The notes under the pieces: generated by a model
What the model saw: the letters and a program-made list of their open reading frames with translations, nothing else
What the model was told of the DNA's origin: nothing
Databases searched by the model: none
Program-made: the position numbers and the translations under genes
Assembly (NCBI RefSeq): GCF_000010625.1
Contig: NC_010296.1
Span: 270,001-302,000, forward strand
Length of the DNA: 32,000 nucleotides
Direction: 5' to 3'
Source: Microcystis aeruginosa NIES-843
GTDB lineage: Bacteria > Cyanobacteriota > Cyanobacteriia > Cyanobacteriales > Microcystaceae
Shown: positions 7,748-30,481 of the stretch, one piece after another
Layout of the letters: each line of letters begins with the position of its first letter
How positions within the stretch are numbered: the first letter of the stretch is position 1

Positions 7748-9202
7748 TTATTTAATGCGTCCGAGGGGCAAGAAAATAGTTAAAATCTCACCTTCTTCGG
7801 GTTTTTCACGCACAATCAATTTACCTCCCAAAGCTTGAAAAAGGTTTTTAGTCACCTTCATATTCAGACTTAAACTACCGGTTTCTGGTTGAAACATTAG
7901 GACTTTTCCCAAAGCTTTGAGGGTAAGATTAGGCGATTTTACCTGAGTTTGGAACTGCATTTTTAATTGATTTCCTGCCGTTGATATATGTACTTGCAAC
8001 AGGCCACCACTAGCCATACTGCGAGTACATTTTTCCACGACTCCATTTAACATTTGATCCAATAAATTCGGGTCACTAATTACCGAAGGCAATTTTTTCG
8101 GTACATTAACTTCTAAATTGACATTGCGCCGTTTAGCTTGTTTTTGCCACCGGGGAATACTATCTTGAAAGACTTTTTCTAGAGCAATTGGAATTAATTG
8201 AATCGGTTTATCCCCCAGAGGATTAATACCCAATTCTGCGGCTCGGAAAATTAATTCCATGCGCTGAATTTGTTCACTACATTCTAAATCGATTGTTTCT
8301 AAATATTTCTGCACATCTTCCGTTACTTTTGCCCGTTTTAATAATAATCGGGTAATGGTGCGAATGGTGGTTAAAGGGGTGCGAATTTCGTGGGTTAAAG
8401 CGCGCAATAATTCCAAATCACAACCCGATTCTAAATTAGAATTATCTTCCTTTGGCGGAGTGATTTCGGCATTGATAGGCGATTTCGTTTTTTTCAGGTC
8501 TAAATTAGGCTGGTTGGGTAAATTTTGCAGTAATTGGCGACTAAATTGGCTAACTAGACGATAATCCGGCGAGGGACTGCCATTAGCCTCGATAATTGCC
8601 TCTAAAGTCCCGATTTGCGGATAACGCAGATTAACTAATCGTTGCCGCAACTGCTGCCAGGCTTGCTGGGTGAGGACGGGATCAAAGGAAAATTGAAAAG
8701 AGGACAAACCCCACTGATCCTCGCCTAAAACCAGCAAAAGAGCGAAACTTTCGCTAAAAACCAGACAAAATCTTTCATTAGCAATCGGATCCGTTGGCAA
8801 GAGAGGCAATTCATGAATCTCCGTCGGGGAAACATCGGCGGCGGATTTTTCCTGAGAAGGCAATTGAAAACCCGGCCATTGTAAATGTTTTAAAGCTTTA
8901 ACAGTAAAAACACCAAATTCAAAACCCGTTAAAGCCTTGCTTTCTCTAACTAAAGCCGTCGGACCGGAGAGAATTAAACCCCGACCGGCGGCAGCATTAT
9001 TTTGGTTTTGTAATAAGATATTTTCTAAAGCGGCGATCGCTGCGAACCATTCACTTTCCGCTTTCAGTTGCGAGCGCTTGAGCCATTCCGATAAATTAGG
9101 ATAAAAAGCATTGGGGGTGAAAGTTTCCCGGTCCTGATGGTCAGTCGGCGGGAAAATATCGCTTAATTTCGGTAAAGACCCCTTTAACATCGTCTTCATC
9201 AC
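7748..9202 (-). CDS. Soluble sensor histidine kinase-like protein with a degenerate ATP-binding domain
   Basis: H-box LTHEIRTPLTTIRTITRLL (HisKA). The C-terminal region ends in the typical ...GGKLIVREKPEEGEILTIFLP, but I cannot find the G1 (DxGxG) or G2 (GxGLGL) boxes; it reads GSLSLNM instead. There is no TM segment and the N-terminal 250 aa are of unknown type. Confidence 0.65.
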   Translation of the reverse strand: MMKTMLKGSLPKLSDIFPPTDHQDRETFTPNAFYPNLSEWLKRSQLKAESEWFAAIAALENILLQNQNNAAAGRGLILSGPTALVRESKALTGFEFGVFTVKALKHLQWPGFQLPSQEKSAADVSPTEIHELPLLPTDPIANERFCLVFSESFALLLVLGEDQWGLSSFQFSFDPVLTQQAWQQLRQRLVNLRYPQIGTLEAIIEANGSPSPDYRLVSQFSRQLLQNLPNQPNLDLKKTKSPINAEITPPKEDNSNLESGCDLELLRALTHEIRTPLTTIRTITRLLLKRAKVTEDVQKYLETIDLECSEQIQRMELIFRAAELGINPLGDKPIQLIPIALEKVFQDSIPRWQKQAKRRNVNLEVNVPKKLPSVISDPNLLDQMLNGVVEKCTRSMASGGLLQVHISTAGNQLKMQFQTQVKSPNLTLKALGKVLMFQPETGSLSLNMKVTKNLFQALGGKLIVREKPEEGEILTIFLPLGRIK

Positions 9203-9307: not shown

Positions 9308-9401
9308 GCAGTTATCTTAATAGTGAGGTACAAAGTTTTGCTTTTGGGGAGTCGGTCGTCGATAGCAAATTAGGTTACACTTCATCTTGATCAGAAAGGC
9401 T
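9308..9401 (-). repeat. Copy B of the dispersed repeat of about 94 bp, in inverted orientation relative to copy A
   Basis: The reverse complement aligns to 3765..3858 (see copy A). Confidence 0.8.
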
Positions 9402-9840
9402 GTCAATCGGTTTAATGATTTGTAATATAGGTTAGTCCAGTTGATTACCTATGCTGGTTGTGGGGTTCGTGGCTCAATTCAACCTCGATAAGTCTGATAT
9501 TTAATTACACCTGCCGACTTATGTGTTTTTTTGTTACATTTAAGTATTTTTTTTGTTTATCTATGGTTATCATAGAGCAAGTTAAATTGTTCCCAAATTA
9601 TTTCCCTAACTAACTGATCTTTGATCCCAAAACCTTTTGCCTTGGCATTACGTCAATGGTAAGAATTATCTCTAAATTAAGCTTTAGAGTAGCATTATTG
9701 CTGCCAAATTTTTCAGTAAAAATTGCTATAAAACAATAGTAAATTTTTGTAAAATATGATTTTTATTAGTTTAATTGAGGTAGAGTATATTCAGAGTAAT
9801 TGATCAATAAATAAACATTGAAGAAACTGGAGGTATACAG

Positions 9841-10593
9841 ATGAAATTTGGGATTGATATGGGTCATAATTGCCCACCTCATGACATTGGCGCATCGGGA
9901 GTTAGACAGGAAGATGTTGTTATTAAAGAGGTGGGTACTCGCCTAATTGCTAAATTAGCCGCAGCGGGTCATTCAGTAATTAACTGCACCCCGACCAGTG
10001 CCGTTAGTCTTAATGATTCTTTGCGAAAAAGAGCCAATAAAGCCAATAGTAATAACGTTGATATTTTTGTTTCTATTCACTTTAATGCCTTTAACAAAAA
10101 GGCAGTGGGAGCGGAGGTTTATGGTATTAGTCAAACTTCTCAAGCGATCGCTAAATCAGTTTTGACGGAAATTGTCAAGCTAGGATTTAAAAATAGAGGA
10201 GTAAAAAATACCCGTTTTTCTGTGTTGGTAAATACTTCAATGCCGGCGATTTTAATTGAATGTTGCTTTGTGGATTCCCAAGCAGACATGGATCTTTTTG
10301 ATGCAGAAAAGATGGCAGAAGCGATTAAAGTTGGTTTAATTGGGGATGCTGATGACAACTCTACACCAGAGCCAGCTACCCTAAGAATTACTCAAAAAAC
10401 TGTTCTTAAACCCTCCACAGAACAATCCTCTGAATTAGAGGCAAGTACTTTAGTTGAGATTGAACCGGGAGATTATGCCGTGTTGGATGTGCGCTTGGAA
10501 GAAAGACATTTTTGGGTGAAATGGCCTGATAAAAGTCAGGCTAATCGAGATGAACATTTCATTTTTGAGGAATTTGCCGAAATCGTGCAATAG
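9841..10593 (+). CDS. N-acetylmuramoyl-L-alanine amidase (Amidase_3 / CwlC-PlyPSA type) with a C-terminal SH3-like beta domain
   Basis: Motifs in order: GIDMGHN...D.GA, EDVVIKEVG..L...L, RANKANSNNVDIFVSIHFNA, GAEVY, NRGVK...FSVL, MPAILIECCFVDS. These give the colinear Amidase_3 pattern including the Zn-ligand H/E/H positions. A strong RBS (ggaggt) lies 6 nt before the ATG. There is no signal peptide. Confidence 0.85.
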   Translation: MKFGIDMGHNCPPHDIGASGVRQEDVVIKEVGTRLIAKLAAAGHSVINCTPTSAVSLNDSLRKRANKANSNNVDIFVSIHFNAFNKKAVGAEVYGISQTSQAIAKSVLTEIVKLGFKNRGVKNTRFSVLVNTSMPAILIECCFVDSQADMDLFDAEKMAEAIKVGLIGDADDNSTPEPATLRITQKTVLKPSTEQSSELEASTLVEIEPGDYAVLDVRLEERHFWVKWPDKSQANRDEHFIFEEFAEIVQ

Positions 10594-10678
10594 ACAGAAA
10601 TTTCTCGATTTATTTCTCAAAATAAAGGGAAATATATCAGCGAAATAATTGATTTTCTACCGCTCACAGGAGAAAGCA

Positions 10679-12229
10679 ATGGCTTTACTAGATGACTTAG
10701 TTCAACGATATGCTCAAGCTGATTTGTCCATAATTTTTCGAGAAGTTGACGCTACCGATAATCGGCAAGTTAACTTAACTGCAATTCCTCCCGATCATTT
10801 TAGTCATTTAAAAGAAGTTTCTCTCGCTCAATGGCTATTAGAGTCCGCCAGAGCCACCAGTAAACTAGCCGAGGAACAGAAAAACTTCGCCGGTTTAAAA
10901 TGGCGCAACGAAATGACTCCCTTTGCTACTCCTAAATCGATTAAAGTACCTTCTGAATCGGAAGCGATGGACTTTTGTTTATTCACGGATATTGACAAAT
11001 TTCTGCGAGGTTATTGGAAATTTTTAACCCGTGAACCCTATAAAGGATTAGAAGAAAATACTCAAACTCCTGAAAACTTTATCGGTTTTATTCAAAGTAA
11101 AGGCTTTGCTGCCGATATAAGTTATATCAGCAAAGTGTTAAAACTTGTTCCCGAAGCGAGGACTTTACTAGCAAAAGCCAACGGAATTGTTATTCCACCA
11201 CCCCCCGATACCTTACAAGTAACCAGTTTTCCCAAGGAAGTGGAAGTGGGACAAAGTTTTCGGATTGAAGGAACCGCCGCCGCTGCCGACAAAGGCAAAA
11301 AACTCACCGTTTTAATTGATAATCAATTCCCCCTAGATGATATTAAAATAGAAGAAGGAGGAGAATGGAAAGCCGAATTTGTCTTCTTACAAGCAGGCAA
11401 TCGCATTGTTAAAATAGCCATTGATAATCAAAGTGTAGAAATCAAAATCAAGGCTTCTCCACCAAAGGCAACAGGTGCAGTTACCCTGAATTTAACGGGA
11501 AGTGTCGGATTAGGAGGAATCAACCGAACAGCCGATAAGATTGCGGTTAAACAGCGATTACATTCCCTCGGCTATACTTTTGTCGGTGATCCTAATAGTG
11601 CAGCCTTGAATACAGGTTTCATTCTTGCTATTAAATTATTTCAATCGATTATTGCAGGGAGAGAAACTCTAGGTGGAGATGGACGAATAGATGTGGACAA
11701 TACCACTCAGAAATGGTTAGAAGCAGCCAATGCACCTCGTTGGCAAACCATGCCCGATAGTAATCCTTCTATTAGCTTAATTAATCATGAGAAAAATCAA
11801 ACTAATGATGATCATGATTTTGGAACAAGTTGGTTAGCAGATGCCATCTTAGAAATTGCTGCTGACTATCATAATACATTCCGAGTTTCTAATCCTAGTA
11901 GTGCCGCTTTTTCTATTAATGATGTTAGTAAACCCACAGGAGGAGACACCCCCCAACACGCAGGCCATGAAACGGGTTTAATGTGTGATGTAAGGCTTCC
12001 GCGCACGGATGGACAACATGGCGGAATCACTTGGGAAAGTGACAATTTTGACCGCACCGCAGCACGCGCTCTGATTAAAGCCATGAGACGACAAAAACTG
12101 GTTAGTCAAGTGTTTTTTAATGACGCGACCCTGAGAGATGAAACTTTTTTGGGACAAAAACTATGCAATTTTGCTCCCGGTCATGATCACCACATTCACT
12201 TTGCTATTCGCCCTCCCGTGAGAGCTTAG
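10679..12229 (+). CDS. Multidomain wall hydrolase: unknown N-domain, Ig-like domain, PG_binding_1-like domain and an LAS/M74 (MepA-like) metallo-endopeptidase domain
   Basis: The C-terminus has HAGHETGLMCDV and HDHHIHFAI, matching the H-x-H..G.D.D and H-x-H zinc motifs of penicillin-insensitive murein endopeptidase and LAS enzymes. The middle region AVKQRLHSLGYTFVGDPNSAALNTGFILAIKLFQ resembles a PG_binding_1 helix bundle. I prefer the ATG at 10679 (aggaga RBS) over the TTG at 10649. There is no signal peptide. Confidence 0.65.
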   Translation: MALLDDLVQRYAQADLSIIFREVDATDNRQVNLTAIPPDHFSHLKEVSLAQWLLESARATSKLAEEQKNFAGLKWRNEMTPFATPKSIKVPSESEAMDFCLFTDIDKFLRGYWKFLTREPYKGLEENTQTPENFIGFIQSKGFAADISYISKVLKLVPEARTLLAKANGIVIPPPPDTLQVTSFPKEVEVGQSFRIEGTAAAADKGKKLTVLIDNQFPLDDIKIEEGGEWKAEFVFLQAGNRIVKIAIDNQSVEIKIKASPPKATGAVTLNLTGSVGLGGINRTADKIAVKQRLHSLGYTFVGDPNSAALNTGFILAIKLFQSIIAGRETLGGDGRIDVDNTTQKWLEAANAPRWQTMPDSNPSISLINHEKNQTNDDHDFGTSWLADAILEIAADYHNTFRVSNPSSAAFSINDVSKPTGGDTPQHAGHETGLMCDVRLPRTDGQHGGITWESDNFDRTAARALIKAMRRQKLVSQVFFNDATLRDETFLGQKLCNFAPGHDHHIHFAIRPPVRA

Positions 12230-12278
12230 TTTCATTCATTGACTAACCAGATAATTGCATAATTGAGAGGTAAAAATT

Positions 12279-13181
12279 ATGGGAATTGTACCGACAACAT
12301 GGATGCCTAACTGTTCGATGAAAAGAATCATTATTCACTGGACGGCAGGGGGACATAAAGCCTCTAGCAGCGATAAATCTCATTATCATATTTTAATCGA
12401 GGATGATGGTAACTTAGTGCGGGGAACTCACTCAATTAAAGATAATGTTTCCACCGCAGATAATGTTTATGCGGCTCATACAGCACTGTTTAATACGGGT
12501 TCAATCGGAGTTAGCGTCTGTTGTATGAGTGGTGCGGTGGAAAAACCATTTAAAGCAGGAAGTTTTCCGATGACACAAACCCAATGGGAAACCATGGCGC
12601 AGGTAGTAGCAGAACTCTGTGATTTTTACGATATTGAAGTAACAGCTAAAACCGTTTTAGGTCATGGAGAAGTAGAACGTGAGTTTCCTAATAAACCCCA
12701 ACGCGGAAAATGGGATCCAATGGTTTTACCCTGGGATACATCCTTAAGTAAAAGACAGGTGGGAGATCAATTTAGAACCCTAGTCAAAACGAAATTAACG
12801 GGCGTTTCTGGTTTAGTGGAAACTCCAGCTAGTATCACAGCAGTTATTCAAGGAAAACCCTTCCGAGAAGCGCAGATATTTAATGAAAAAAGTATCGTCA
12901 AGATTCGTCCTTTGCTAGATACTTTTAATTGGAAAATTATTACTGCCAATGATCAAGAAGTGATGGAATTAAAATTTGCTGATGGGGAAGAGGCAAAATC
13001 CTTAGGATTTTTGCTGATTGAACACAGCAATAACCCGATGGATATCCCCGAGGGAACTAGCCAAGGAGAAATTATCAAGAAAATTGAACAATTCGGCTTT
13101 GTGAAAGTAGTAGATTTGGCGCAAGCACTGAATCTTTCTGTAACTTGGGATGGCACAACTCGGACAGTAACAATTGAGTAA
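12279..13181 (+). CDS. N-acetylmuramoyl-L-alanine amidase (Amidase_2 / PGRP-T7 lysozyme fold) with a C-terminal copper-amine-oxidase-N-like stalk domain
   Basis: Amidase_2 order of motifs: IIIHWTAG, SHYHILIEDDGNLVRG, NTGSIGVSVC, VLGHGEV......KWDP. The C-terminal LAQALNLSVTWDGTTRTVTI is the typical end of the stalk domain. There is no signal peptide. Confidence 0.75.
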   Translation: MGIVPTTWMPNCSMKRIIIHWTAGGHKASSSDKSHYHILIEDDGNLVRGTHSIKDNVSTADNVYAAHTALFNTGSIGVSVCCMSGAVEKPFKAGSFPMTQTQWETMAQVVAELCDFYDIEVTAKTVLGHGEVEREFPNKPQRGKWDPMVLPWDTSLSKRQVGDQFRTLVKTKLTGVSGLVETPASITAVIQGKPFREAQIFNEKSIVKIRPLLDTFNWKIITANDQEVMELKFADGEEAKSLGFLLIEHSNNPMDIPEGTSQGEIIKKIEQFGFVKVVDLAQALNLSVTWDGTTRTVTIE

Positions 13182-13768
13182 AGATCGATAACTTCAGGAG
13201 ATAATTTTATGCAAAACTACACGATTAAATCGGGAGATACCCTCAGAGGAATTGCTTTAAAATTTTATGGTGATGCTTCAAAGTTTGTGGTAATTCAAGA
13301 AGCCAATGATATTGCCAATCCTAATCAAATTTCCGTGGGACAAGTTTTAGAAATTCCCGAGCTTGCCGATGACAATGACAATAATCCCCTAGAAAATTTT
13401 CATCGGGCTTTTCCTAATAGTGTACGCTGGCGATTGGCAGAAGATGGAGTGGAAATTGAAGGTAGCGGCATTGAGCGAACCAGTGGTCAACCGGCGACTG
13501 CTACTAAAATTTGGAATAATTTTTCTGATGAAATTAATCAATGGTCAAAACATTTTAATGTGCCAGCAGTAATTATTATTGCCACCATTGCCACAGAATC
13601 GAACGGAAAAGCAGACGCTATCCGCAAAGAACCGGGTTATGTATCTGATTCTATCACCCCTCATTTGATCAGTGTTGGCTTAATGCAAACATTAATTTCT
13701 ACGGCCAGAGGTACATTACATAATTCAACCATCGATCGAGATGACTTAAAAAATGCCAGTATTTCTAT

Positions 13769-15841
13769 CCCACATTCCGCACCCTCAACTGTCACATAAG
13801 CTGTCCCCCGCCAGAGACTTGAGTAAAAATACTTAGCTGGTGAAGGTTTTCTCGGTGGCCGCTAGGGGGGCTTTGAGACCCTAATTATGAAAAAATAGGA
13901 ATTGTTGGAAAACTGAGGCGAGTGGACTGTTCGACCATGAATCAATCAACAGAAATTGAAGTCAAAAATCTAGACCATCTGGGATTAGTAGCCGGAATTA
14001 TCGATGAAATAGGAATCGTTGAAATTATCAACGAACAAGTCTCAATTGAGCGAGGAGAAATTGTCACAGCGGGGCAAGTAGTGAAAGCAATTATCCTGAA
14101 TGGATTGGGATTTGTCTCCCGAGCCTTGTATTTATTTCCTCAATTTTTTGAAGATAAAGCAACCGAACATCTGCTGGGAGAAGGCATCGAAGCAAAACAC
14201 CTGAATGATGATAAAATTGGTCGAGTAATGGACAAACTTTATCAACTGGATGTTTCGGGTATTTTCCTACTCATCAGTTTAGCCGCCGTGAAAAAATTTG
14301 GTGTAGCAACCGAGAACTCCCATTTAGATTCGACTTCTCTATCAGTAGAAGGAGAATATAAAAAGGAATACCCAACAGTAGAAATCCTGAAATCAGGAGC
14401 AGTGGGAGAAGAAATTGAAACCAGACAACAGCCAATAAAAATTACCTACGGATACTCCCGCGACCGAAGACCTGACTTAAAACAATTTATGATTGACTTA
14501 ATCGTAAGTGGGGATGGAGATGTACCTTTATTCCTGAAAGTAGGGGACGGAAATGAAGCGGACAAAGCAGTTTTTGGTCAAATCGCCCGAGAATTTAAAA
14601 AACAAGTTGACTTTGACAGTTTAATAGTCGGCGATAGCGCCCTCTATAGCAAAGAGAATTTAAAACTAATGAGAGAAATGCGTTGGTTGTCTCGAGTACC
14701 ATTAAGCATCAAAGAGGCTCAAGAGTTAGTCGATAGCATCTCAGAAAAAGAGTTAACCGATTCAGAAATACCGGGTTATTCCTGGCGGGAAACAAGCTCT
14801 AACTATGGGGGGATAGAACAAAGATGGTTGCTAGTTGAAAGTCAAGCTAGACAAGAATCAGACTTGAAAAAATTAGAGAAAAAAATCGAGCAGGAAAAGA
14901 ATTCTGCCCAAGAAAAAATCCGGCAACTATCCCGAAGAGAATTTGAGAATAGAGCGGTGGCGTTGGCGATAGCCAAAGGATTATCTGACTCCTTAAAATC
15001 TCATCAGTTAACGGAGATTAAAGTCAATCTCATTCCGCCTGAGTCCCAGGGGTCAAAACTCAAATCAAAAGACGATTTACCCTCTCAAAGCTATCAAGTT
15101 CAAGCCGAATTAGAGTTGAATTTGGCAGCGATTGAGAGGCTAAAGAAACGAGCAGGACGATTCGTTTTAGCAACTAACGATTTGGAGAAAAAACGATTGA
15201 GCAGTGAGGATATACTCAAAAAATATAAGGGGCAACAAGCTCCAGAAAGAGGATTTTCTTTTCTCAAAGACCCCTGCTTTTTTGCTGACAGTGTCTTTCT
15301 CAAATCTCCCCATAGAATCGAGGTCATGGCCATGCTCATGGGCTTGTGCCTGCTGGTTTATACTATTGGTCAAAGACAACTTCGTTTAAGTTTAAAACAG
15401 CAGGAGACGGGACTGAAAAATCCGTTGGGTAAGTTAACTGACCGACCGACGTTACGCTGGATATTTCAGGGCTTTCAAGGGATTCATCTCGTCCGTATTC
15501 AAGACAATCAAAAGATTAGCAACTTAACGGATGAGAGGCGCAACATTTTGAGATTTTTTCCCAAACCTTGCCAAGAATATTATCTCTTATCTTGACCAGA
15601 TGGATTGACTTCAAGGGGTGACAAAACAAAGCGAGCAACTGGAACATCTCCCCCTAGATGTTAAGTCTGATTGCCTAGTCATTCTCAACAAGCACTGTTT
15701 ATTGAGAATGACCGGGGGAACTCTGAAATTTTCGGCTTAGTTGCCGGCAGCTTGCCGCCAACTCACTCCTCTAGATAAGTATTTTGACTCGCGCCCCTTC
15801 CTCTTTTGAGACGTTGTGACACTTAGGGTGCGGAATGTGGG
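13769..15841 (+). mobile_element. IS4-superfamily (IS1634-like) insertion sequence, 2073 bp, with a 6-bp TSD
   Basis: The terminal inverted repeats share the same 17 nt: cccacattccgcaccct at 13769 and its reverse complement ending at 15841. The match extends imperfectly to about 28 nt (..tgtcaca). A TTCTAT direct duplication lies at 13763-13768 and 15842-15847. The element holds a single transposase ORF. Confidence 0.85.
13937..15595 (+). CDS. IS1634/IS4-family DDE transposase
   Basis: N-terminal LDHLGLVAGIIDEIGIVEIINE is typical of IS1634-group transposases. It is about 550 aa, has a central coiled-coil K/E-rich insertion, and lies between the TIRs. I prefer the ATG at 13937 over the GTG at 13922. 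Confidence 0.75.
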   Translation: MNQSTEIEVKNLDHLGLVAGIIDEIGIVEIINEQVSIERGEIVTAGQVVKAIILNGLGFVSRALYLFPQFFEDKATEHLLGEGIEAKHLNDDKIGRVMDKLYQLDVSGIFLLISLAAVKKFGVATENSHLDSTSLSVEGEYKKEYPTVEILKSGAVGEEIETRQQPIKITYGYSRDRRPDLKQFMIDLIVSGDGDVPLFLKVGDGNEADKAVFGQIAREFKKQVDFDSLIVGDSALYSKENLKLMREMRWLSRVPLSIKEAQELVDSISEKELTDSEIPGYSWRETSSNYGGIEQRWLLVESQARQESDLKKLEKKIEQEKNSAQEKIRQLSRREFENRAVALAIAKGLSDSLKSHQLTEIKVNLIPPESQGSKLKSKDDLPSQSYQVQAELELNLAAIERLKKRAGRFVLATNDLEKKRLSSEDILKKYKGQQAPERGFSFLKDPCFFADSVFLKSPHRIEVMAMLMGLCLLVYTIGQRQLRLSLKQQETGLKNPLGKLTDRPTLRWIFQGFQGIHLVRIQDNQKISNLTDERRNILRFFPKPCQEYYLLS

Positions 15842-16244
15842 TTCTATTAAAGCAGGAACGTCATTTATTGCCGATCAACGCTTGAAAACTTTGTTAGATC
15901 CGCCCAAAGTTGCCTGTGCTTATAATGCTGGTTCTCTATTTGAAAACAAAAATTCCAATAATCGTTGGCGAATGCGTCAATTTCCCATTGGTACTTCCGC
16001 ACACTGCGATCGCTTTATTAAATTCTTTAACGATGCAGTCTTTGTTTTGAAAGGAACCACCACGCCTGTTAGCGTCGGCTATCAACAATTTTATCTAGCT
16101 TGATTTCCTCGCCTGTCTTGGGGTTCTGATCATCAATTCAGCTTGCGGCTCTCAAGCATCAATTTTAGTCAGTCATGTCCAGTTATCTAGTTAGAAGAAA
16201 TTTGTCTTTCTATTTATTTCAAGATTTCAAGGAGTGGTAAAGCT

Positions 16245-17153
16245 GTGTTATTCAAGCTTTTTCAGCGATTCATGATCTTTGGATTTACTTTAGTAATAAT
16301 CTTATTTTTTCAAGCAAAAATCCAAGCTCAAACCGTTTGTCAAATAGTACCGACTTCTCAGATTTCTTCTATCGATCAGGCTAAATGTTTATTACGTCAA
16401 CCCAAGATTTTTGGGAATGTGGGACCAACTTTAACCAGTTTACCTGCTCCGTTTGATCAACTCTTAACTAGACCTACCATTGATATCAGTAAAGAGCAAT
16501 TAAGACGATATCTACAAGCTCAAGGAATTAACGAAGCAGACATTGGCGGTTCATTAGATAAACCTGTCTCACGAACCAATAATAATAATCCCAGGGCAGA
16601 GTTGGCTCGTTATTTTATTATTCATGATACCAGTACCCCTAATTTGGGCAATGATACCTTTCCCAATAATATTAATGAAGCTAGTTGGGAATTTAATAAT
16701 TTCAATAAATATGGCAGTGGTGACAATTCTCCCGCTCATATCATTATTAATCGAGTAGGACAATCCGTCACTCGTAAGGATTTTAATACCCCTTGGCGTT
16801 CTACCAGACGAGAATCGGAGCAATTTTGTGGGGTGAATAAATGTAAGGGTTTATTCTTAGCAGTTGAATTAGTTCAACCTAGAAAATGTCAACCAAACTC
16901 TGGTCAAACACAGTGTTCTCCACCCAGAAAAAATGATGCTAAATCGCCAGATCCCGGCTTTACCAAAGCTCAATTAGATCGCCTAGCAGTTGTTTATATT
17001 GCGGCCAGTGTACGGCGCGGAAAATGGTTAATTCCTGCTTTTCATGTTGTTCTTGATCAAATCGTACCGGGTGGACATGATGACCCTCAGAATTTTAACC
17101 TAGATCAATGGTCAAAACAACTCAATGACATTTTAACTGAAATTCGTTCTTAG
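16245..17153 (+). CDS. Secreted AmpD-like / Amidase_2-like putative peptidoglycan amidase
   Basis: Signal peptide (..FFQAKIQA-QT). FIIHDTS, PAHIIINRVGQ, LAVELVQ and FHVVLDQIVPGGHDDPQNFNLDQW are colinear with AmpD IVIH.., H..I.R.G, IGIEL.G and GH.D....K.DPG..FDW. The spacing and one ligand context differ, so the call is tentative. Confidence 0.5.
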   Translation: MLFKLFQRFMIFGFTLVIILFFQAKIQAQTVCQIVPTSQISSIDQAKCLLRQPKIFGNVGPTLTSLPAPFDQLLTRPTIDISKEQLRRYLQAQGINEADIGGSLDKPVSRTNNNNPRAELARYFIIHDTSTPNLGNDTFPNNINEASWEFNNFNKYGSGDNSPAHIIINRVGQSVTRKDFNTPWRSTRRESEQFCGVNKCKGLFLAVELVQPRKCQPNSGQTQCSPPRKNDAKSPDPGFTKAQLDRLAVVYIAASVRRGKWLIPAFHVVLDQIVPGGHDDPQNFNLDQWSKQLNDILTEIRS

Positions 17154-17162
17154 GAGTTAATT

Positions 17163-18323
17163 ATGAACAAATATTTGAGACAATTATTACTAACTATTGC
17201 AGTAATTTATCTAATTCTAATGAGTAGTTTTCTCTCTCCAGCATTCGCACAAGTTAGCTACACCCCTCCTGCTCAGTCGGCGAGTGTTTTACGAGATATT
17301 CCATTCAATCAAGCTGTTCCGGTTGATGAAGCCTATCGCAAAGAATTTGAAAACTGCGATCAAAAAGATACTTTTAGAGGATTTTCTCTACCAATTATTA
17401 GAAGATGTAAGAACGATCCTAATAATGTTAAAGCCTTGTTAAAATTATCAGACGGAACAATTTTTATCGAATCGAAATTGAGTTTAGATATCGATGGCTC
17501 ATGGTTAGCGTGTAAAGGACAAGGCGCGCCGACTTCTCAATGCCCAACATCTTTTTCTTGGCCAACGGAAACCCAAGAACCTAATAAATTTGTTGATCCT
17601 GATAACTTTGCTTATATCGTCAATCCAGTATCTAATTTTCAAAAAAGTAATGATCCCGGTGGAAATCAATTATTTGAAAAGAAAACAGGGGTTAAGTTAG
17701 GAGATTTAGGAGTAGTTGTTTACAAAAATAAGGTGGTTCCTGTATTCGTCGCTGATAGCGGCCCTTATAATAAATTAGGCGAAGGTTCATCCTTACTTCA
17801 TCAATTGATTGGTGAAGATAAATGTAAACCGGGTAAACGAAGAACGGACGGAAAAACTCGCACTGATAAGCGATGGACAAGTGATGTTCATTGTACTGAA
17901 TACAAGAATGTTAGTGTGGAAGATAAAGTTCTCTTTTTTATCTTTCCCAACTCTAAAATTCCGAATTTGAGTCCTGCGAATGCCACGAACAAAATCAATA
18001 CAGAAGCTTTAAAACGCTTTGAAAACCTCAAGGATAATCGTCAAGGGGTGATTCAACTCAATCAACCTCAATCAGGACAAAGTTTTGCTGTTAATACTGC
18101 CGTGACATTTTCTGGTACTGCTAACCCAGAAGTTTCCCGAATTAAAGTCAGTATCGGTCTTGGAGGTCTCTTTGAAATTGCCGACCTCAAAAATATTAAA
18201 AAAAACTGGACTTTTGAGCAAGTTTTTAACACAAAAGGGATCGATAGACCTGTGACTATTCAACCTTTCAATGCTACAGATAAACCGCTTAAACCTCTGA
18301 ATTTTACGATTACCATTCAATAG
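17163..18323 (+). CDS. Secreted GH75 (chitosanase-family)-like protein with a C-terminal Ig-like domain
   Basis: Signal peptide (..SPAFA-QV). LSLDIDGSW, AYIVNP and GDLGVVVYKNKVVPVFVADSGPYNKLGEGSSLLHQLIG are colinear with the fungal GH75 blocks DMDVDCDG, PFIVIP and ...GILGDSNG....GEAS (catalytic D/E pair retained). The start overlaps an RBS coupled to the upstream stop (9-nt gap). Confidence 0.55.
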   Translation: MNKYLRQLLLTIAVIYLILMSSFLSPAFAQVSYTPPAQSASVLRDIPFNQAVPVDEAYRKEFENCDQKDTFRGFSLPIIRRCKNDPNNVKALLKLSDGTIFIESKLSLDIDGSWLACKGQGAPTSQCPTSFSWPTETQEPNKFVDPDNFAYIVNPVSNFQKSNDPGGNQLFEKKTGVKLGDLGVVVYKNKVVPVFVADSGPYNKLGEGSSLLHQLIGEDKCKPGKRRTDGKTRTDKRWTSDVHCTEYKNVSVEDKVLFFIFPNSKIPNLSPANATNKINTEALKRFENLKDNRQGVIQLNQPQSGQSFAVNTAVTFSGTANPEVSRIKVSIGLGGLFEIADLKNIKKNWTFEQVFNTKGIDRPVTIQPFNATDKPLKPLNFTITIQ

Positions 18324-18366
18324 TTCATTCTGTTCTTTTGTATTGACTTTCAGGAGAATTAAACCC

Positions 18367-19215
18367 ATGGCTAACAAAACTCTCAAAGCATTAACCAACA
18401 CCGTTATTAAGTCTTTACCTCAAGATAGCATTGGCTTAAGTGATTCCCAGAAAATTACTTTACCTGAAGATGCTACTTTAGAAATCTTGCAATATCGTTC
18501 TGCACCTAATAATCATTGGGAAATTCAATTAGTCACTCCCCAAAATGGTCTTGTCACTTGGTTTGCTTTTATCTCCCATGTCGAAATATTTTCTGATCCT
18601 AACTTCAAGAAAACTTTAGTAGAGACAGCTACTGAAGAATGGGAATTTTTTGAAAAAGGAACTAAAAAAGAACGAGAAGATGGCTTTTGGCAAAGAGTGG
18701 TTAAATATTGGAAAGAAGCTCTTAATATACACCATATTGATACTCCCGATGAAGTAGGAGACGGTATAAGAAATCCTTGGTCAGCTGCCTTTATTTCTTG
18801 GATCATGACAAAGGCAGGTGCAGCAGACAAATTTAAGCGTGATGCGAGTCATTCAGTTTATATTCACGATGCCGTTCAAAAACGTAAAAATCGAGTGTTT
18901 GATGCCCCATTTATTGCTTTTAAAGTTGATGAAATCACGCCAGAAGTAGGGGACTTAGTTTGTGCGCCAAGGGCAAGTTCAGTAGATTTTGTTAAATATG
19001 ACACATCCCCACCTTATGCTTCTCACTGCGATTTAGTGGTGGCAAAAAGAACGAATGAAATTGATATGATTGGGGGCAATGTTGAAGATTCTGTGAGTAA
19101 GACAACTATTGAATTGAATGCAGAAGGAAAAGTAATTCCTAATGGAAAAATTCTGGTTAACGGGAATCCAGCTACAAAACGACCTTGGTTTGTAGTGATT
19201 AAAAACCTTCTCTAA
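18367..19215 (+). CDS. DUF2272-like putative cell-wall hydrolase with an N-terminal SH3-like domain
   Basis: The blocks NPWSAAFISWIMTKAG, HSVYIHD, GDLVCAPR, SHCDLVV and IGGNVEDSVSK match my recollection of the DUF2272 pattern, which is reminiscent of papain-like CHAP/NlpC blocks. I prefer the ATG at 18367 (aggaga RBS) over the TTG at 18343. There is no signal peptide. Confidence 0.4.
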   Translation: MANKTLKALTNTVIKSLPQDSIGLSDSQKITLPEDATLEILQYRSAPNNHWEIQLVTPQNGLVTWFAFISHVEIFSDPNFKKTLVETATEEWEFFEKGTKKEREDGFWQRVVKYWKEALNIHHIDTPDEVGDGIRNPWSAAFISWIMTKAGAADKFKRDASHSVYIHDAVQKRKNRVFDAPFIAFKVDEITPEVGDLVCAPRASSVDFVKYDTSPPYASHCDLVVAKRTNEIDMIGGNVEDSVSKTTIELNAEGKVIPNGKILVNGNPATKRPWFVVIKNLL

Positions 19216-19258
19216 TTTGTTTCTTTCGTTATTTACTTTAACTTTCAAGGACAAAGTT

Positions 19259-20737
19259 ATGGCTACCTTACAAGATATTATCAACGAAAGTAAAACCCTA
19301 ACCCGTTCCCAACTAAAAACGGACAAAGGGTTAGTAATAGAAATTCAAACCAAACTCGCTAACCTAGGATTTTACCCCGGCGGCGGTTGGATTGATGGAG
19401 ATTTAGGAGAATCCAGTAGTTTTTCTTGGACTGGATTAATTGATTTTTGTAAAAAAATTGGGAGTCTTCCCATTCCCTCGGATACCCTAGCTATCAATAA
19501 AGAGATTGCCCAAAAATTGCTAACAACCAAGCAAGTTGACTCGGTTCTTAAAGCAGCTACTCAAAATTCAATTCTTACCCGTCTTCAACAAATTCAAACC
19601 AGATCACCAATTATTAATAAAAACACCCCTCCTTCTGCTTTTGTATCTCGAAGTATTGAGCAATCTCCTTTCAAACCATTTATCATTAATTATCCCAATT
19701 TCTTAACCCAGAAACCCGACGGAACCTCTCTAATTTCCTCTGGTGATACTTTGGTACTTTCTGATGGTAGAACGGTTAACTTTAACGACTATCCTAATTG
19801 CGGAAGTCAGCCAAATATTGACAATAATGGTTTAAGTTTTCTTCCTAGTAATATCTCTCATGCTTGTCTTTGTATCGGAAGTTTTAAAGATAGTAATAGC
19901 CCGATTAAAGCCAGATGGTTAGGAAAAGATGCCCTAACACCTGTTACTTTATGGTGGAGTACCACTAAATTTATTGGCGTTTTAAATACAGTTTGTCAAA
20001 TTAATCAAAACTCAATTAATACAGATATTGATGATTGTGTGATTGCTTCTCACCGATTTAATGATTTAGTAAGAGATATGGTGAGTTATCAGGGACTATC
20101 TTCTAATCGTATTGGGGCTTTATTTAAAAGCTTTAGTAAAAGAGAAGTTTTAAGTAATTGGATTGAAACACAAACAGGAAGTGTTAGTCTAAATTTTACG
20201 GGTTCCTATGGAGAAGATTCCTTAATTTTTCCAGCAAGAATTAAAGATACAACGACAGGAAATATTGTCTTATCTTCAGGGGATGTTGGTGCGGCTACTT
20301 CAACTAATTCCCTGTCAGCCTACGATCTGGTACGCCTAATTTCAATGTTAGGATGGCATTTACATTTACCCAATAATGCTAAACTTCCCTCAGCCCAATG
20401 GAAAAGTTTAGAAAGCATAGTTCGGGCAATGGGTCATGATACAGCACGATATGTAGATGTAGCTTTTGAAACCTTGGGAGTTATGAATATTATCAGTGAA
20501 CCTGTGATTATTTCAAAAGTAGGTTGGGGAAACATATCTGCTACTTCTGGGTCAATGACTTATACCGTATTTGTTAAATTTGTTGATCGACGTTTTACTC
20601 CTGCAAAATTAAGAACTTTCGCCTTATCTTTACGTTGTCTGAGTCCAGTTTCTTCTGATTTTGATGGGAGAGATACCAATTTAGCCGCCGCTGTCACCGA
20701 AATTGTCCGCCGCATTTTAACCGAGGAATTGCCTTAA
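19259..20737 (+). CDS. PG_binding_1-like domain protein with a C-terminal beta-lactamase/DD-peptidase-like serine hydrolase domain (tentative)
   Basis: N-terminal IEIQTKLANLGFYPGGGWIDGDLGESSSFSW resembles PG_binding_1. The C-terminal half has WWSTTKFIGVL (SxxK, 19958-19969), LSSNRIG (SxN, 20099-20107) and SKVGWG (a KxG variant, 20516-20524) in the canonical order. I prefer the ATG at 19259 over the TTG at 19217. There is no signal peptide. Confidence 0.45.
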   Translation: MATLQDIINESKTLTRSQLKTDKGLVIEIQTKLANLGFYPGGGWIDGDLGESSSFSWTGLIDFCKKIGSLPIPSDTLAINKEIAQKLLTTKQVDSVLKAATQNSILTRLQQIQTRSPIINKNTPPSAFVSRSIEQSPFKPFIINYPNFLTQKPDGTSLISSGDTLVLSDGRTVNFNDYPNCGSQPNIDNNGLSFLPSNISHACLCIGSFKDSNSPIKARWLGKDALTPVTLWWSTTKFIGVLNTVCQINQNSINTDIDDCVIASHRFNDLVRDMVSYQGLSSNRIGALFKSFSKREVLSNWIETQTGSVSLNFTGSYGEDSLIFPARIKDTTTGNIVLSSGDVGAATSTNSLSAYDLVRLISMLGWHLHLPNNAKLPSAQWKSLESIVRAMGHDTARYVDVAFETLGVMNIISEPVIISKVGWGNISATSGSMTYTVFVKFVDRRFTPAKLRTFALSLRCLSPVSSDFDGRDTNLAAAVTEIVRRILTEELP

Positions 20738-20795
20738 TCTACTTTGGTCATAACTAAAAACAAAAACTTGTAAAATCAATAGTGAGGTCTTAAAA

Positions 20796-21797
20796 ATGAA
20801 CCTAGGAACCCTTCTCGAAATTATTGTTGCTCTAATTTTTATCTACTTAGCTTCCAGCCTTATTATCTCCGAATTACAGGAACAATTGGCCGCCTTATTA
20901 GAATTTCGGGCTAGAAATTTAAAAAAAGCTCTGGAAATATTCTTGGGGAAAAATACGGTGGAATCTTTGTACAATAATGGATCGTTATTATCAAGTTTCA
21001 ATCAATACACTAATTTTGGGAAGTCAGTTGGTCCTTCCTATGTTGAACCAAAAGTTTTGGCAGAGTCTCTAATTAGTCTAGTTAATAGTCAACTTTCAGA
21101 TAATGAAAAATTATTAAAAGCGGATTTCTTAGGAAATAATCTTGATCAACAAAAAACAGGAATCTTTAAGAAATTAGCTAGTATTTCTGATTTTTCTAAA
21201 ATAGACAAAACGGCTATTGACAGATTGATACAAATAGGTTACAGCACCAAACTCAAATATGACAATCCAACTCTGGAGAATTTTGTTGATGAAATAGCCA
21301 ACACTTTTACTCAAATTATGGAGCGAACATCGGGGGTATATAAAAGAAATGCCAAGGGTGTATCTTTTGCTTTTGGTTTTTTAGCGGCTGCCTTGCTCAA
21401 TATTGATAGTTTTTATGTCATTGAGCAACTATCCAAAAATTCCAATTTAAGACAGGGAATTAATCAGGTAGCGACAGAAGTTTTTCAGACTAATGAATCT
21501 TGTTTTAAAGACGCTAAAGATGATCCTAACAAAGTCGCTGAATGTACAGAAAAATTACAAGCCAGTGTCAAGGACTTAGAAAAAATTAATCAACCTTTGC
21601 CGCTTGGTTGGGATGAAAAAGGATGGTTTAATGGTGAACAAATAAAAGAACAAAATGGCTTGTTACAAGCTATCTTTGGCTGGTTAATGACAGGAGTAGC
21701 CGTGGCGATGGGCGCACCTTTTTGGTTTGATATTTTAGGGAAGCTTATCAATGTGCGTAATACTGGCAAACCCATATTTCCTAATACTCAGAAATAA
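20796..21797 (+). CDS. Membrane protein of unknown function (3 predicted TM helices and a long amphipathic loop)
   Basis: TM1 LLEIIVALIFIYLASSLIIS, TM2 VSFAFGFLAAALLNI, TM3 IFGWLMTGVAVAMGAPFWFDIL. I recognise no catalytic motif. Confidence 0.6.
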   Translation: MNLGTLLEIIVALIFIYLASSLIISELQEQLAALLEFRARNLKKALEIFLGKNTVESLYNNGSLLSSFNQYTNFGKSVGPSYVEPKVLAESLISLVNSQLSDNEKLLKADFLGNNLDQQKTGIFKKLASISDFSKIDKTAIDRLIQIGYSTKLKYDNPTLENFVDEIANTFTQIMERTSGVYKRNAKGVSFAFGFLAAALLNIDSFYVIEQLSKNSNLRQGINQVATEVFQTNESCFKDAKDDPNKVAECTEKLQASVKDLEKINQPLPLGWDEKGWFNGEQIKEQNGLLQAIFGWLMTGVAVAMGAPFWFDILGKLINVRNTGKPIFPNTQK

Positions 21798-21946
21798 ATA
21801 ATTATTGCTGTCACTTTAACGATTTTCCATCAATCCTCAAACCAGTCCTTTCTCAGATTATTTCTAGTCATTTCTTGTCTTTTTCTCTTTTATTGCCTAT
21901 AATTTTCTTAATCCTCACTTTTCTGGTTAACAAGGAGAATACAATC

Positions 21947-22924
21947 ATGCAACCTCTCAACTTTTCTATTATCCAAGAGATCAAACATCAAGGAATTTGT
22001 GATGCTTCTGCAGCCACTGCTTTAGGAGAAAATAAATTTGTTGTTGGTAATGATGAGGCGGATCCAAAATTAGGTAATTTTCTCTGGATTTATTCCTCTC
22101 AAGAGTCGGGAAAAGCCCTGAAAACAATTGACATTAATAGTTGGGTGAAGAACAATCTTAAAAATAAAGAAATCGACTTGGAGGGGGTAACTGTGCTAAA
22201 TGACATAATCTATTGGATTACTTCCCATGGCCGCAATAAAAATGCCGAACAAAAACTCCCTCGTCATCAATTTTTTGCCAGTAAAATTACCGATGACGGC
22301 TCTAGTATAGTTCAAGTGGGTGAGTCTTATACTCAGTTAGTCTTGCGCGATATTATCGAAGACTCTCAATTGGCTGAAATATTTGATTTCAAAACGGCAG
22401 AAACCAAAGCTCCTAAAGCTGAAGGAGGATTAAATATTGAAGGTTTAACGGCAACTCAAGACGGAAATATCTTAATCGGTTTTCGTAATCCCATACCAAG
22501 TAATAAAGCTCTTTTATTAACTCTAAAAAATCCTTACAGTTTAGTTAATAATTCCAGCAATGCTCGGGCTGATTTTGGTGATCCTATCCTGTTAGATTTG
22601 GGAGGATTAGGAATTCGTAGCATTGAATTTTGGCCTGCTTTAGAAGTATATTTAATTATTGCTGGAGAATTTCATGGAGGCGATCAATTTGTTTTCTATA
22701 CTTGGTCAGGAAAAAAAGAAGATGCACCGGAAAAGATAGAATCACTGCAATTCCCTGACGGTTTTCGTCCAGAAGCTTTGTTGTTTTATCCCCATTTCCC
22801 AGATCGCTTTCAGATTTTAAGCGATGATGGTACAATCGAGCGAGTTGGTAATACTCCCTGTAAAAATACCGATAAAAATAATCCCGAAAAATATTTCCGC
22901 AGTATTTGGGTAAAAGTTAATTAA
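21947..22924 (+). CDS. DUF3616-like (phytase-like beta-propeller) protein of unknown function
   Basis: Blocks ASAATALGENKFVVGNDE, IDLEGVT, ITSHGRN, GGLNIEGLTATQDGNILIGFRNP and PEALLF recall the DUF3616/phytase-like family. I prefer the ATG at 21947 (aaggaga RBS) over the TTG at 21875, so the apparent signal-like N-terminus in the ORF track is probably not translated. Confidence 0.4.
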   Translation: MQPLNFSIIQEIKHQGICDASAATALGENKFVVGNDEADPKLGNFLWIYSSQESGKALKTIDINSWVKNNLKNKEIDLEGVTVLNDIIYWITSHGRNKNAEQKLPRHQFFASKITDDGSSIVQVGESYTQLVLRDIIEDSQLAEIFDFKTAETKAPKAEGGLNIEGLTATQDGNILIGFRNPIPSNKALLLTLKNPYSLVNNSSNARADFGDPILLDLGGLGIRSIEFWPALEVYLIIAGEFHGGDQFVFYTWSGKKEDAPEKIESLQFPDGFRPEALLFYPHFPDRFQILSDDGTIERVGNTPCKNTDKNNPEKYFRSIWVKVN

Positions 22925-23166: not shown

Positions 23167-23357
23167 TCCTAGAAGCTCTATCTCAATGGAGCGAGAGGAC
23201 TCCCGTTAAACCGCGTAGCGGTTAACGGGAGATAAATCGCCACCGGAATGAAACTAACGCGGTAGCGTTTCCACTTTTGGGGAGTTTTGGTTCTCGACGT
23301 ATTTTTTTAGTTGTTCGACAGTAAGTAGTCGTGCAAAATTAATTTCTTGGTTAGGAT

Positions 23358-23385
23358 AGGCAAAAGGCAAGAGGCAAAAGGCAAA
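23358..23385. repeat. Heptamer tandem repeat GGCAAAA/GGCAAGA x4 (STRR-like)
   Basis: Read directly. It is bracketed by a 12-bp inverted repeat: gcaaaattaatt at about 23333 and aattaattttgc at about 23404. Confidence 0.85.
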
Positions 23386-23404
23386 AGCTTGATCGAAATG
23401 TGTA

Positions 23405-23769
23405 ATTAATTTTGCTTAGGTACTTAACTCCGCCACAACTAGCCACGAAATAAGCTCCCGTCCAAAAATAAGGTTTATTGTCGAAATACTTGGCCGCCAA
23501 ATCCAGAAATTCCTTTCTAATTAATGGGACTACTAACTGTTTTAAGGTTAGCGATTAATTTGGATAAAGCGATGTCAGGCTTGTCATCGATAATCAGGTG
23601 AACGTAATCCGATTCACCGTTGAAATCAAGCAACACGCTTTCCCATTTCGTCAGCGTTGATACAAAGATTTCTTGAAGTCGGGCTAAGATTTCATTGTTA
23701 ATAGCAATGGTCGGTATTTGATGACGAATATGACGTGAGCGGTAAGTCTATAAACAGAGCAAAATTCAT
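23405..23769 (-). pseudogene. tnpA: IS200/IS605 Y1 transposase (tnpA) pseudogene
   Basis: On the minus strand three different frames carry colinear TnpA blocks: TAHVIFVIKYRP (the HxVFxxKYR motif), DFNGESDYVHLIIDDKPDIALSKLIANLKTVSS (the DHVHLLI... LKG.SS motif) and LIRKEFLDLAAKYFDNKPYFWTGAYFVASCGG. At least two frameshifts and several stops interrupt them. Confidence 0.75.
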
Positions 23770-23855
23770 GATTGTAATCGGTTGACATATTAGGCGGTAA
23801 GTGTTATAATCTAATTGTACATCACGAAACGAACGACAGTGATAACGCTTACCTA

Positions 23856-26149: not shown

Positions 26150-26345
26150 CGAACCAAGAGATACGGCATCAGCAAAGGTAATTGAGAACCGAGGAAAAAA
26201 CGCGGTCGGGCTGACCGTGTTGGAAAACGCTCGCGGAGGCGATTTGACGGGGATCGACCGGGTTAAACCAGGTCGATCTAGTTAAAAGCCTAAGAACCGA
26301 GAATCCCCCGCTACACCGCGCGAGCGGTTAGCGGGGGAGAGTCAA
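26150..26345 (+). ncRNA. Putative TnpB-associated omega/right-end RNA region (3' end of tnpB plus the RE hairpin)
   Basis: Called by analogy with characterised TnpB systems, where the guide RNA scaffold overlaps the tnpB 3' end and the right-end hairpin. The strong hairpin at 26305-26337 followed by gagagTCAA is visible. The 5' boundary is a guess. Confidence 0.3.
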
Positions 26346-26484
26346 TAACCTTTTTCTCTTATCCAGAGGACTTCTGGGTTCGCAAAGGGACAAAAAAGTG
26401 TGGAGAATCCTCCCATAATCGCTACAATTTTTCTAGAGGCTAAGTATTGCCCTCATTCAAGTTCTTTTGTACTCATTAAAAACC

Positions 26485-29607: not shown

Positions 29608-29620
29608 CCGAGGTAAACCT

Positions 29621-30460: not shown

Positions 30461-30481
30461 TTTTTAAGACAAGCAGAATCT

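Follow-up and report, generated by a model that had tools for sequence, protein, structure and literature searches.

A strain-variable chromosomal cluster of predicted peptidoglycan hydrolase genes in Microcystis

The chromosome of Microcystis aeruginosa NIES-843 carries an island of ten plus-strand genes, most of them for predicted cell-wall hydrolases, at positions 9841-22924 of the 32,000-nucleotide stretch analysed here (NC_010296.1, 270,001 to 302,000; referred to below as the window, whose coordinates are used throughout). The reading that we favour, tentatively and at something short of an even chance, is that these are endolysin-like enzymes stored in the cytoplasm, which would reach the murein after a breach of the membrane, with the producing cell itself or its neighbours as the target. 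The original prediction, made from the letters of this DNA alone, held that the genes are co-directional and closely spaced and that such a concentration of hydrolases is unusual, and both statements were borne out. Computed from the likely ATG starts, the intergenic gaps are, in order, 85, 49, 27, 141, 9, 43, 43, 58 and 149 bp. Only two of the ten members are not enzymes, namely a protein with three transmembrane segments (3-TM protein) and a DUF3616 protein. If about 40 wall-hydrolase genes are taken to lie among about 6300 genes, both counts being our assumption, a run of ten consecutive genes with at least eight hydrolases has an expectation of ~7e-13 occurrences per genome. Exact look-ups identify the window proteins as BAG00145.1 to BAG00155.1, and proteins identical to them are also present in M. 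viridis NIES-102, PCC 9809 and KW. The literature searched held no account of the cluster or of how it is conserved and varies. The individual genes are already family-annotated in NCBI, and all component families are known.

The domain inventory of the original prediction stands on hidden Markov model, profile and fold evidence (Table 1), save that it missed a glycoside hydrolase family 73 (GH73) domain in the second gene. The first protein matches the PHROG 435 endolysin at 1.3e-55; its Amidase_3 domain is 40-44% identical to endolysins of Bacillus, Clostridium and Mastigocladus phages, and its C-terminal domain of ~85 aa has no family assigned. The Amidase_2 protein matches the PHROG 5867 endolysin at 3.9e-41, and its catalytic domain shares 56% identity with the endolysin of Sinorhizobium phage PBC5 (E=1e-52). 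BAG00146 had been described as an M74/LAS endopeptidase; its N-terminus is GH73, and the LAS assignment of its C-terminus stays below threshold (PF03411 at E=0.002, scoring 18.1 bits where the cut-off demands 25). All single-sequence and profile searches with this domain were sub-threshold, MepA being the sole, weak match in PDB and NCBIfam. The metallopeptidase motifs H440-x6-D447 and H515-x-H517, numbered from an alternative TTG start at 10649, are invariant in the orthologues from M. wesenbergii (locus L012; loci from other genomes are given as L numbers) and Allocoleopsis (L039), and the C-terminus is 32% identical to a paralogue at the same locus in another Microcystis strain (L049) that passes M74 at 1.5e-16.

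The AmpD-like protein and the protein with a penicillin-binding protein (PBP) fold were resolved solely by structure prediction and Foldseek; together with the 3-TM protein they gave nothing significant against PDB, with single sequences or with profiles. BAG00150, the AmpD-like protein, has no Pfam match. Its model finds AmpD (2y28) as the top Foldseek match (E=5.5e-4, TMt 0.57), followed by LysCS (an Amidase_2 endolysin), T7 lysozyme, PGRP-LB and AmpDh2/3, and residues H127, E208, H267 and H278-D279-D280 are invariant in an alignment of 33 sequences. The modelled fold and the positions of the Zn-binding His/His/Asp and the catalytic Glu place BAG00150 in the predicted AmpD-PGRP fold. Because fold and residues fit and yet the Pfam model fails, it is regarded as a divergent Amidase_2/AmpD-PGRP member. 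For the PBP-like protein, for which Pfam and PDB gave nothing at the sequence level, the model returned 141 Foldseek matches at E<1e-3, all of them serine beta-lactamases or PBPs with TMt ~0.6. Among 35 sequences the motifs S248xxK251, S295xN297 and K434xG436 do not vary, and fold and motifs assign the predicted structure to the penicillin-binding/serine beta-lactamase superfamily. Its homologues are named peptidoglycan-binding proteins in the source databases.

The protein at 17163 is a predicted member of glycoside hydrolase family 75, the name it also bears at NCBI. The family profile matches the structure of the GH75 chitosanase V-Csn at 3.5e-5 over the catalytic D148/E157, and the invariant D198 and E207 align with this Asp/Glu pair. 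In six lineages the GH75 gene always adjoins a gene of the AmpD-like family. DUF2272 is a papain-like family of the NlpC/P60 clan in which Ser replaces Cys (PMC10318531), and the window protein has Ser147 at the nucleophile position and His228. As a separate observation, an N-terminal module of ~80 aa is common to the DUF2272 protein (18367-18610), the GHL10 protein of M. wesenbergii (L012 3038-3260) and a 321-aa protein of an uncultured cyanobacterium that has no family assigned (L014 210-440), with up to 48% identity by tblastn. It may serve these proteins as a shared domain for wall binding or for targeting; an SH3b identity of these modules is a visual pattern with no Pfam support. Most island enzymes are modular: a catalytic domain of endolysin type is joined to a module that binds the wall (LysM, PG_binding_1 or a terminal module without assignment). 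To judge from family membership, the island would cover glycan, amide and peptide bonds; the claim of the original prediction that every bond class of the sacculus is covered likewise derives from family membership only.

Table 1. Members of the island and associated features in NIES-843 (window coordinates).
Feature	Position	Strand	Evidence
Amidase_3 MurNAc-L-Ala amidase, BAG00145, 250 aa	9841..10593	+	Pfam PF01520, 9.6e-33
GH73 glucosaminidase, Ig-like/PG_binding-like middle, LAS/M74-like C-terminus, BAG00146	10679..12229	+	PF01832, 1.6e-13
Amidase_2 amidase, leaderless, C-terminal Cu_amine_oxidN1-like segment	12279..13181	+	PF01510, 5e-13
LysM + SLT lytic transglycosylase gene, interrupted by an insertion sequence	13209..16103	+	LysM 2.7e-10, SLT 5.2e-7
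AmpD/PGRP-fold amidase-like protein, Sec-exported (predicted), BAG00150, 302 aa	16245..17153	+	AF2 pLDDT 90.7, Foldseek
GH75-like glycosidase, Sec-exported (predicted), C-terminal Ig-like domain, 386 aa	17163..18323	+	homologues carry PF07335
DUF2272 protein, leaderless	18367..19215	+	PF10030, 5.6e-35
PG_binding_1-like and penicillin-binding/beta-lactamase-fold serine peptidase-like protein, leaderless	19259..20737	+	AF2 pLDDT 91.1
3-TM membrane protein, unannotated family, 333 aa	20796..21797	+	transmembrane segments start at residues 1, 191, 289
DUF3616 protein, leaderless	21947..22924	+	PF12275, 4.6e-10, plus weak Phytase-like match
IS4-like element, outside the system	13769..15841	+	DUF4277 + DDE_Tnp_1 transposase at 13922-15595 (Pfam)
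GHL10 deletion junction	9670..9671	.	blastn of L012 1700-4800, clean break 9670|9671

A hydrophobicity scan detected signal-peptide-like N-termini only in the AmpD-like protein (hydrophobic peak 2.95) and the GH75 protein, as originally predicted; the other eight of the ten proteins have none. For the Amidase_3 gene, an upstream in-frame start is impossible. The leaderless state recurs in orthologues from Microcystis, Allocoleopsis (L039) and the loci L014, L009 and L010, and the signal peptides of the AmpD-like (p302) and GH75 families are conserved in their orthologues too. Since orthologues keep the split between leaderless and secreted members, the lack of signal peptides is a conserved trait and does not stem from faulty annotation. 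The leaderless island amidases are, like the enzyme of a phage lysis cassette, endolysin-type hydrolases without a signal peptide.

The 3-TM protein has no match in Pfam, NCBIfam, PHROG or PDB, nor was any found in Pfam, NCBIfam or PHROG for 28 members of its family. Charged residues and conserved Cys in the family alignment point to an N-out/C-in protein, in which the cytoplasmic loop would span ~160 aa and the periplasmic loop would hold a conserved Cys pair. The family comprises 8718 clusters at 50% identity (E<=0.001), and one member (P0335) is fused to GHL10. No holin-family match was obtained for the protein, the only membrane protein of the block, and no spanin-like open reading frame (ORF) was seen. 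As side observations, the family has the conserved motifs SGVYKRNAKG and GAPFWFD, and many of its members are the C-terminal module of proteins of 500-900 aa. DUF3616 is the only gene kept in every Microcystis variant of the locus (90-93% identity in L044-L052), and it also closes the clusters in L014, L039 and L017. Metagenome loci with a more remote DUF3616 (38-40% identity), which are probably proteobacterial, lie mostly outside hydrolase clusters, and DUF3616 is therefore not a universal marker; an exception is L060, a probable proteobacterial contig in which DUF3616 is linked to DUF2272.

The whole island is found in M. wesenbergii between the same histidine kinase and SNF2 genes, and in M. 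novacekii (L007) the part that has been sequenced stops at that SNF2 gene. In NIES-843 the left flank holds the histidine kinase, a dehydrogenase and an MscS channel, and the right flank an SNF2 helicase and a SWIM protein. Rearranged versions of the cluster occur in Allocoleopsis, Pseudanabaenales, Synechococcus and uncultured cyanobacteria, with the same families in a different order in L014, L039, L017, L016 and L010. The uncultured cyanobacterium L014 has 13 co-directional genes: two unassigned genes, then Amidase_2, LysM-SLT, GHL10, DUF2272, PBP-like, PG_binding_1, AmpD-like, GH75, DUF3616, Amidase_3 and glucosaminidase. The order in Allocoleopsis PCC 7113 (L039) is Amidase_3, glucosaminidase-LAS, SH3/3D, DUF2272, PBP-like and DUF3616, and that in a metagenome-assembled genome of Pseudanabaenales is Peptidase_M15_3, GH19-like, AmpD-like, GH75 and DUF3616; in Synechococcus UW140 the AmpD-like/GH75 pair is preceded by a gene for an Amidase_2+PG_binding_1 protein. 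Conditions that would have refuted the original prediction thus do not hold: the domain assignments stand, related genomes show synteny of the genes, and no prophage emerges from the flanking sequence.

The copy of the island in NIES-843 is partly decayed, with an insertion sequence (IS) in the SLT gene and a deleted GHL10 gene. Terminal inverted repeats of 17 nt without a mismatch bound the IS4-like element, and its target site is duplicated over 6 bp (TTCTAT). Excision of 13769-15841 together with one copy of the duplication yields a single intact LysM-SLT ORF; the gene is therefore a recent pseudogene in NIES-843, and it is intact in L012, L014, L044, L050 and L052. The GHL10 gene of M. wesenbergii (L012 3038-4384; PF02638 at 3.1e-73) encodes a leaderless protein and is absent from NIES-843. 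It is also present in the clusters of L010, L014, L047 and L049, and the GHL10 lytic transglycosylase belongs to the ancestral island. In M. novacekii, a region that matches only residues 5-289 of the PBP-like protein (L007 3184-4936) has no gene called and is probably a pseudogene.

A metagenome scan anchored on DUF3616 yielded ten more Microcystis versions of the locus. In all ten, DUF3616 is present and the upstream genes differ, and the SNF2 and SWIM genes are 97-99% identical, as in all Microcystis loci compared. Some loci are of the NIES-843 type with an intact SLT gene; some are devoid of GH75 and DUF2272 or have alleles merely 57-79% identical. Whole sets of genes also change: one variant carries VanY, a lipoprotein, a further Amidase_2 and an SH3 protein; one carries SH3+GHL10 and a class-3 lipase (Lipase_3); one carries GHL10, PG_binding_1+GH19-like, a lipoprotein, Amidase_2 and a trypsin+M74 fusion; and one (L046) carries a GH24 'Phage_lysozyme' with PG_binding_1, a secreted SH3 protein and a lipoprotein. 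The absence of small immunity-type ORFs between the enzymes, as originally described, is correct for NIES-843 and does not extend to these other strains, in which lipoprotein or signal-peptide ORFs stand beside the VanY, GH19-like and lysozyme cassettes (L045, L049 and L046, respectively). These ORFs matched no family, and one of them overlaps its upstream gene by 4 nt (L049, 3807 vs 3810). The PBP-like gene has two allele types, 56% identical and with dS ~1.1, each ~70% identical to genes in other genera; by sequence divergence, the alleles appear ancient. The ratio dN/dS is 0.10-0.38 in all genes compared, which indicates purifying selection, and the right-hand island genes are somewhat more relaxed than the flanks. 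Cassette swapping between strains under purifying selection suggests a biological conflict and not housekeeping growth.

On the reading that we favour, the locus would be a chromosomal array of envelope-degrading enzyme cassettes with strain-dependent content. The leaderless enzymes would build up in the cytoplasm, separated from the murein by the membrane, and, in the manner of endolysins and mother-cell lysins, would begin to act only once the cytoplasmic membrane is breached, whether by the locus's own 3-TM protein in a holin-like manner or by stress, a phage or a predator. They would then cut glycan strands, MurNAc-L-Ala amide bonds and peptide cross-links of the nearest sacculus, first in the producer's own wall and, after lysis, possibly in the walls of neighbours. 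The AmpD-fold amidase and the GH75 glycosidase, as a Sec-exported pair, would work in the periplasm or outside the cell.

Several points weigh against this proposal. Neither a holin family nor a spanin or secretion gene was detected, and the 3-TM protein, with 333 aa, is far larger than known holins. Its huge family is, as far as visible, mostly not found beside hydrolases, and L046, L049 and the clusters outside Microcystis lack the gene itself. Two members have been lost in NIES-843 and the PBP-like gene is truncated in M. novacekii, which implies that no single enzyme is essential. Self-lysis alone would leave the hypervariability and the lipoprotein ORFs unexplained, and enzymes set free near Gram-negative neighbours would be stopped at the outer membrane of these cells. 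The sole hint of expression is a strain-specific Microcystis amidase and murein endopeptidase in late-bloom metatranscriptomes (PMC5647855), which may or may not come from this locus.

The original prediction offered a bacteriolytic arsenal, programmed autolysis and an anti-parasite device as possible roles. The computation selects none of them, and the hypervariability favours a role of the conflict type. Under a more specific proposal, which we consider possible and would not bet on, the locus is a hypervariable conflict system, not recognised before in cyanobacteria, of endolysin-like hydrolases stored in the cytoplasm; anchored by DUF3616 (in Microcystis also by the membrane protein) and released or activated by a membrane breach, it would kill invading or neighbouring bacteria or execute altruistic lysis.

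That the enzymes form an antibacterial arsenal against competing or epibiotic bacteria, as toxins of the bacteriolysin or effector type exported by an unrecognised route or taken up like pesticin, with the lipoproteins as immunity, is rather unlikely. The gene content varies strongly although the site is fixed and its flanks are conserved, which speaks for it, as do the deep divergence of the PBP-like alleles and the pairing of catalytic with binding domains. The variant cassettes (amidases, GH24, VanY, GH19-like, Lipase_3, trypsin+M74) fit the range typical of interbacterial effectors such as the Tae, Tge and Tle proteins of the type VI secretion system (T6SS), and small lipoprotein or signal-peptide ORFs directly follow some of the enzymes. 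These ORFs, however, match no known immunity family, and the NIES-843 variant has none that is immunity-like. Delivery or export genes are absent from the window and from all related loci: neither VgrG, PAAR, Hcp nor any other T6SS gene occurs among the Pfam matches near the island (ORFs >=80 aa) or in the related loci, in line with the original statement that genes of phages and of secretion machinery are missing from the window. Most of the bacteria that accompany Microcystis are, moreover, Gram-negative, and their murein is shielded by the outer membrane. No defence model of PADLOC was matched by the nine island proteins submitted (LysM-SLT left out).

A booby trap against predators or parasites that breach the cell, similar to Bdellovibrio or Vampirovibrio, is improbable. 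Cytoplasmic lysins, lipases and proteases would meet the envelope of the invader, and storage in the cytoplasm would itself protect the producer. Such a trap would account jointly for the leaderless enzymes, the wall-binding modules, the many bond types, the lack of immunity genes in NIES-843 and the hypervariability. It is, however, purely inferential, and it leaves the secreted amidase/GH75 pair and the lipoprotein ORFs unexplained.

Ordinary wall maintenance, in which clustered housekeeping enzymes serve remodelling, turnover or muropeptide recycling for growth, division or colony formation, is given little credence. Every family also has housekeeping members, the cluster sits on the chromosome and is found widely across the genus, and the AmpD-fold protein and the leaderless Amidase_2 recall the recycling enzyme AmpD. 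By contrast, leaderless enzymes would be unable to remodel the periplasmic wall; LysM, PG_binding_1 and SLT imply a polymeric substrate and not imported muropeptides; and a permease gene is absent. Presence/absence polymorphism and the replacement of whole cassettes would be unexpected for housekeeping genes, and the first enzymes have their nearest relatives among phage endolysins. Muropeptide recycling of the AmpG-AmpD-NagZ-LdcA type was rejected specifically, given the missing permease, the wall-binding modules and the fact that the AmpD-fold protein is the exported one.

Least credible is the view that lysis modules of prophages or tailocins were captured here again and again, at a hot spot of recombination, and have no function of their own. 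The PHROG endolysin matches, the GH24 'Phage_lysozyme' cassette of L046 and the nearby IS elements and repeat of miniature inverted-repeat transposable element (MITE) type would lend themselves to it, but it is at odds with purifying selection, with the linkage of the same families across cyanobacterial orders and with the absence of any capsid, tail, terminase, integrase or holin family from the window and more than 15 related loci. In addition, a scan of 2.9 million viral contigs found no member of the PBP-like family, and the AmpD-like family occurs in viral contigs three times only (36-42% identity). The same chromosomal flanks in three Microcystis species and the lack of phage structural genes show that the island is not a prophage, and a prophage remnant was rejected on the flanks, the missing phage genes and the viral-contig scans.

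Phage holin-endolysin cassettes and their domesticated forms ('type 10' secretion, Serratia ChiWX; C. difficile TcdE/TcdL) likewise use leaderless murein hydrolases. The island resembles them in catalytic domains up to 56% identical to phage endolysins and in a small-genome-style co-directional block with a 3-TM protein of predicted N-out/C-in topology. It differs in having 8-11 enzymes instead of one or two and no recognisable holin or spanin, phage genes or cargo gene, and it occupies a stable chromosomal site throughout the genus, with related clusters across cyanobacterial orders. The mother-cell lysins CwlC and CwlH of B. subtilis are autolysins of programmed lysis. Like these, the island encodes leaderless Amidase_3 and Amidase_2 proteins with wall-binding domains; CwlC/CwlH-type autolysins act on the producer's own wall. 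In C. difficile, the stationary-phase autolysis enzyme Cwp19 is a lytic transglycosylase with GHL10 as its catalytic domain (PMC6016235), and GHL10 likewise belongs to the ancestral island. Cwp19 has a signal peptide, whereas the island GHL10 protein is leaderless, and the genes for CwlC, CwlH and Cwp19 are scattered and not hypervariable, unlike the clustered genes of the island that are swapped between strains.

A further set of comparators comprises the effector-immunity islands of T6SS Tae, Tge and Tle proteins and the bacteriolysin bacteriocins pesticin, lysostaphin and zoocin A. Common features are strain-variable amidases, muramidases, peptidases and a lipase, modular catalytic and targeting domains and, in strains other than NIES-843, candidate periplasmic lipoproteins beside some enzymes. 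In contrast to effector-immunity islands, the locus has no T6SS or delivery genes, no PAAR, VgrG or Hcp and no recognisable immunity family. The operon of the rhizobial M15A peptidase BacHh contains genes for a lysozyme, an amidase, an M23 peptidase, proteases and DUF3616, and a role in 'feeding or scavenging' has been suggested for it (PMC8052667). It too is co-directional and non-core, with several wall hydrolases, including a LAS-family peptidase, and DUF3616; it differs from the island in phylum and enzyme families, and it was described in passing without experiments (PMC8052667).

Microcystis blooms end in mass lysis, which releases toxins and nutrients. To our knowledge, no lytic machinery of the Microcystis cell's own has been reported. 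The locus is the largest set of wall-degrading enzymes that we found described for any cyanobacterium, is under selection and differs between co-occurring strains. Should it serve self-lysis, it would open bloom collapse and the release of toxins to genetic study; as a conflict system, it would be a molecular executor of Microcystis lysis and bloom collapse; and as a weapon or trap, it would represent an interbacterial conflict system without a known delivery machine, of a kind barely described in the phylum. The island also supplies a functional context for three uncharacterised families (DUF3616, DUF2272 and the membrane-protein family of more than 8,700 representative clusters), and its modular lysins may serve as enzymes active on cyanobacterial walls.

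The Rfam scan of the window matched nothing, and hence no riboswitch or leader RNA is placed upstream of the island. A scan for promoters and terminators performed at chance level and was not used. The insertion at 23182-26345 (3.2 kb) comprises an IS630 transposase gene (23869-25044, minus strand) and an IS605 OrfB/TnpB gene (25434-26285), and Pfam confirmed both elements as named by the original prediction. The block is absent from M. wesenbergii, and M. novacekii also has no IS between island and SNF2. Because the island abuts SNF2 directly in both species, the IS630/IS605 block is strain-specific, and the flanking IS and MITE-like sequences are strain-specific insertions and not the borders of the island. 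A dispersed repeat of ~81 nt lies at 9308-9388 with an inverted second copy at 3778-3858 (89% identical). Other Microcystis loci have further copies of it downstream of SWIM, which marks it as MITE-like. An IS200/IS605 TnpA-like ORF of 137 aa lies between the histidine kinase and GHL10 in M. wesenbergii (L012 1956-2369), and this position at the island edge makes it another sign of a mobile-DNA hot spot.

The minus-strand neighbour at 7748-9202 is histidine-kinase-like, with a HisKA domain, a weak DICT match and no HATPase_c match, and this divergent gene holds the same position in M. wesenbergii. On the right, the SNF2 helicase (DUF3670 + SNF2 + Helicase_C, 1046 aa) and the SWIM zinc-finger protein form a pair at 26467-30460. 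The helicase matches the PADLOC models DpdE/ZorD at 1e-139, and the other parts of those defence systems are absent. The last ORF (30461-32000), open at the right end, encodes at least 513 aa with the N-terminal Rossmann/RCK-like motif GLGSLGQH and later hydrophobic segments, which suggests a protein of the TrkA type or a K+ channel. At this position M. novacekii instead encodes an AAA_15/AAA_21 ATPase.

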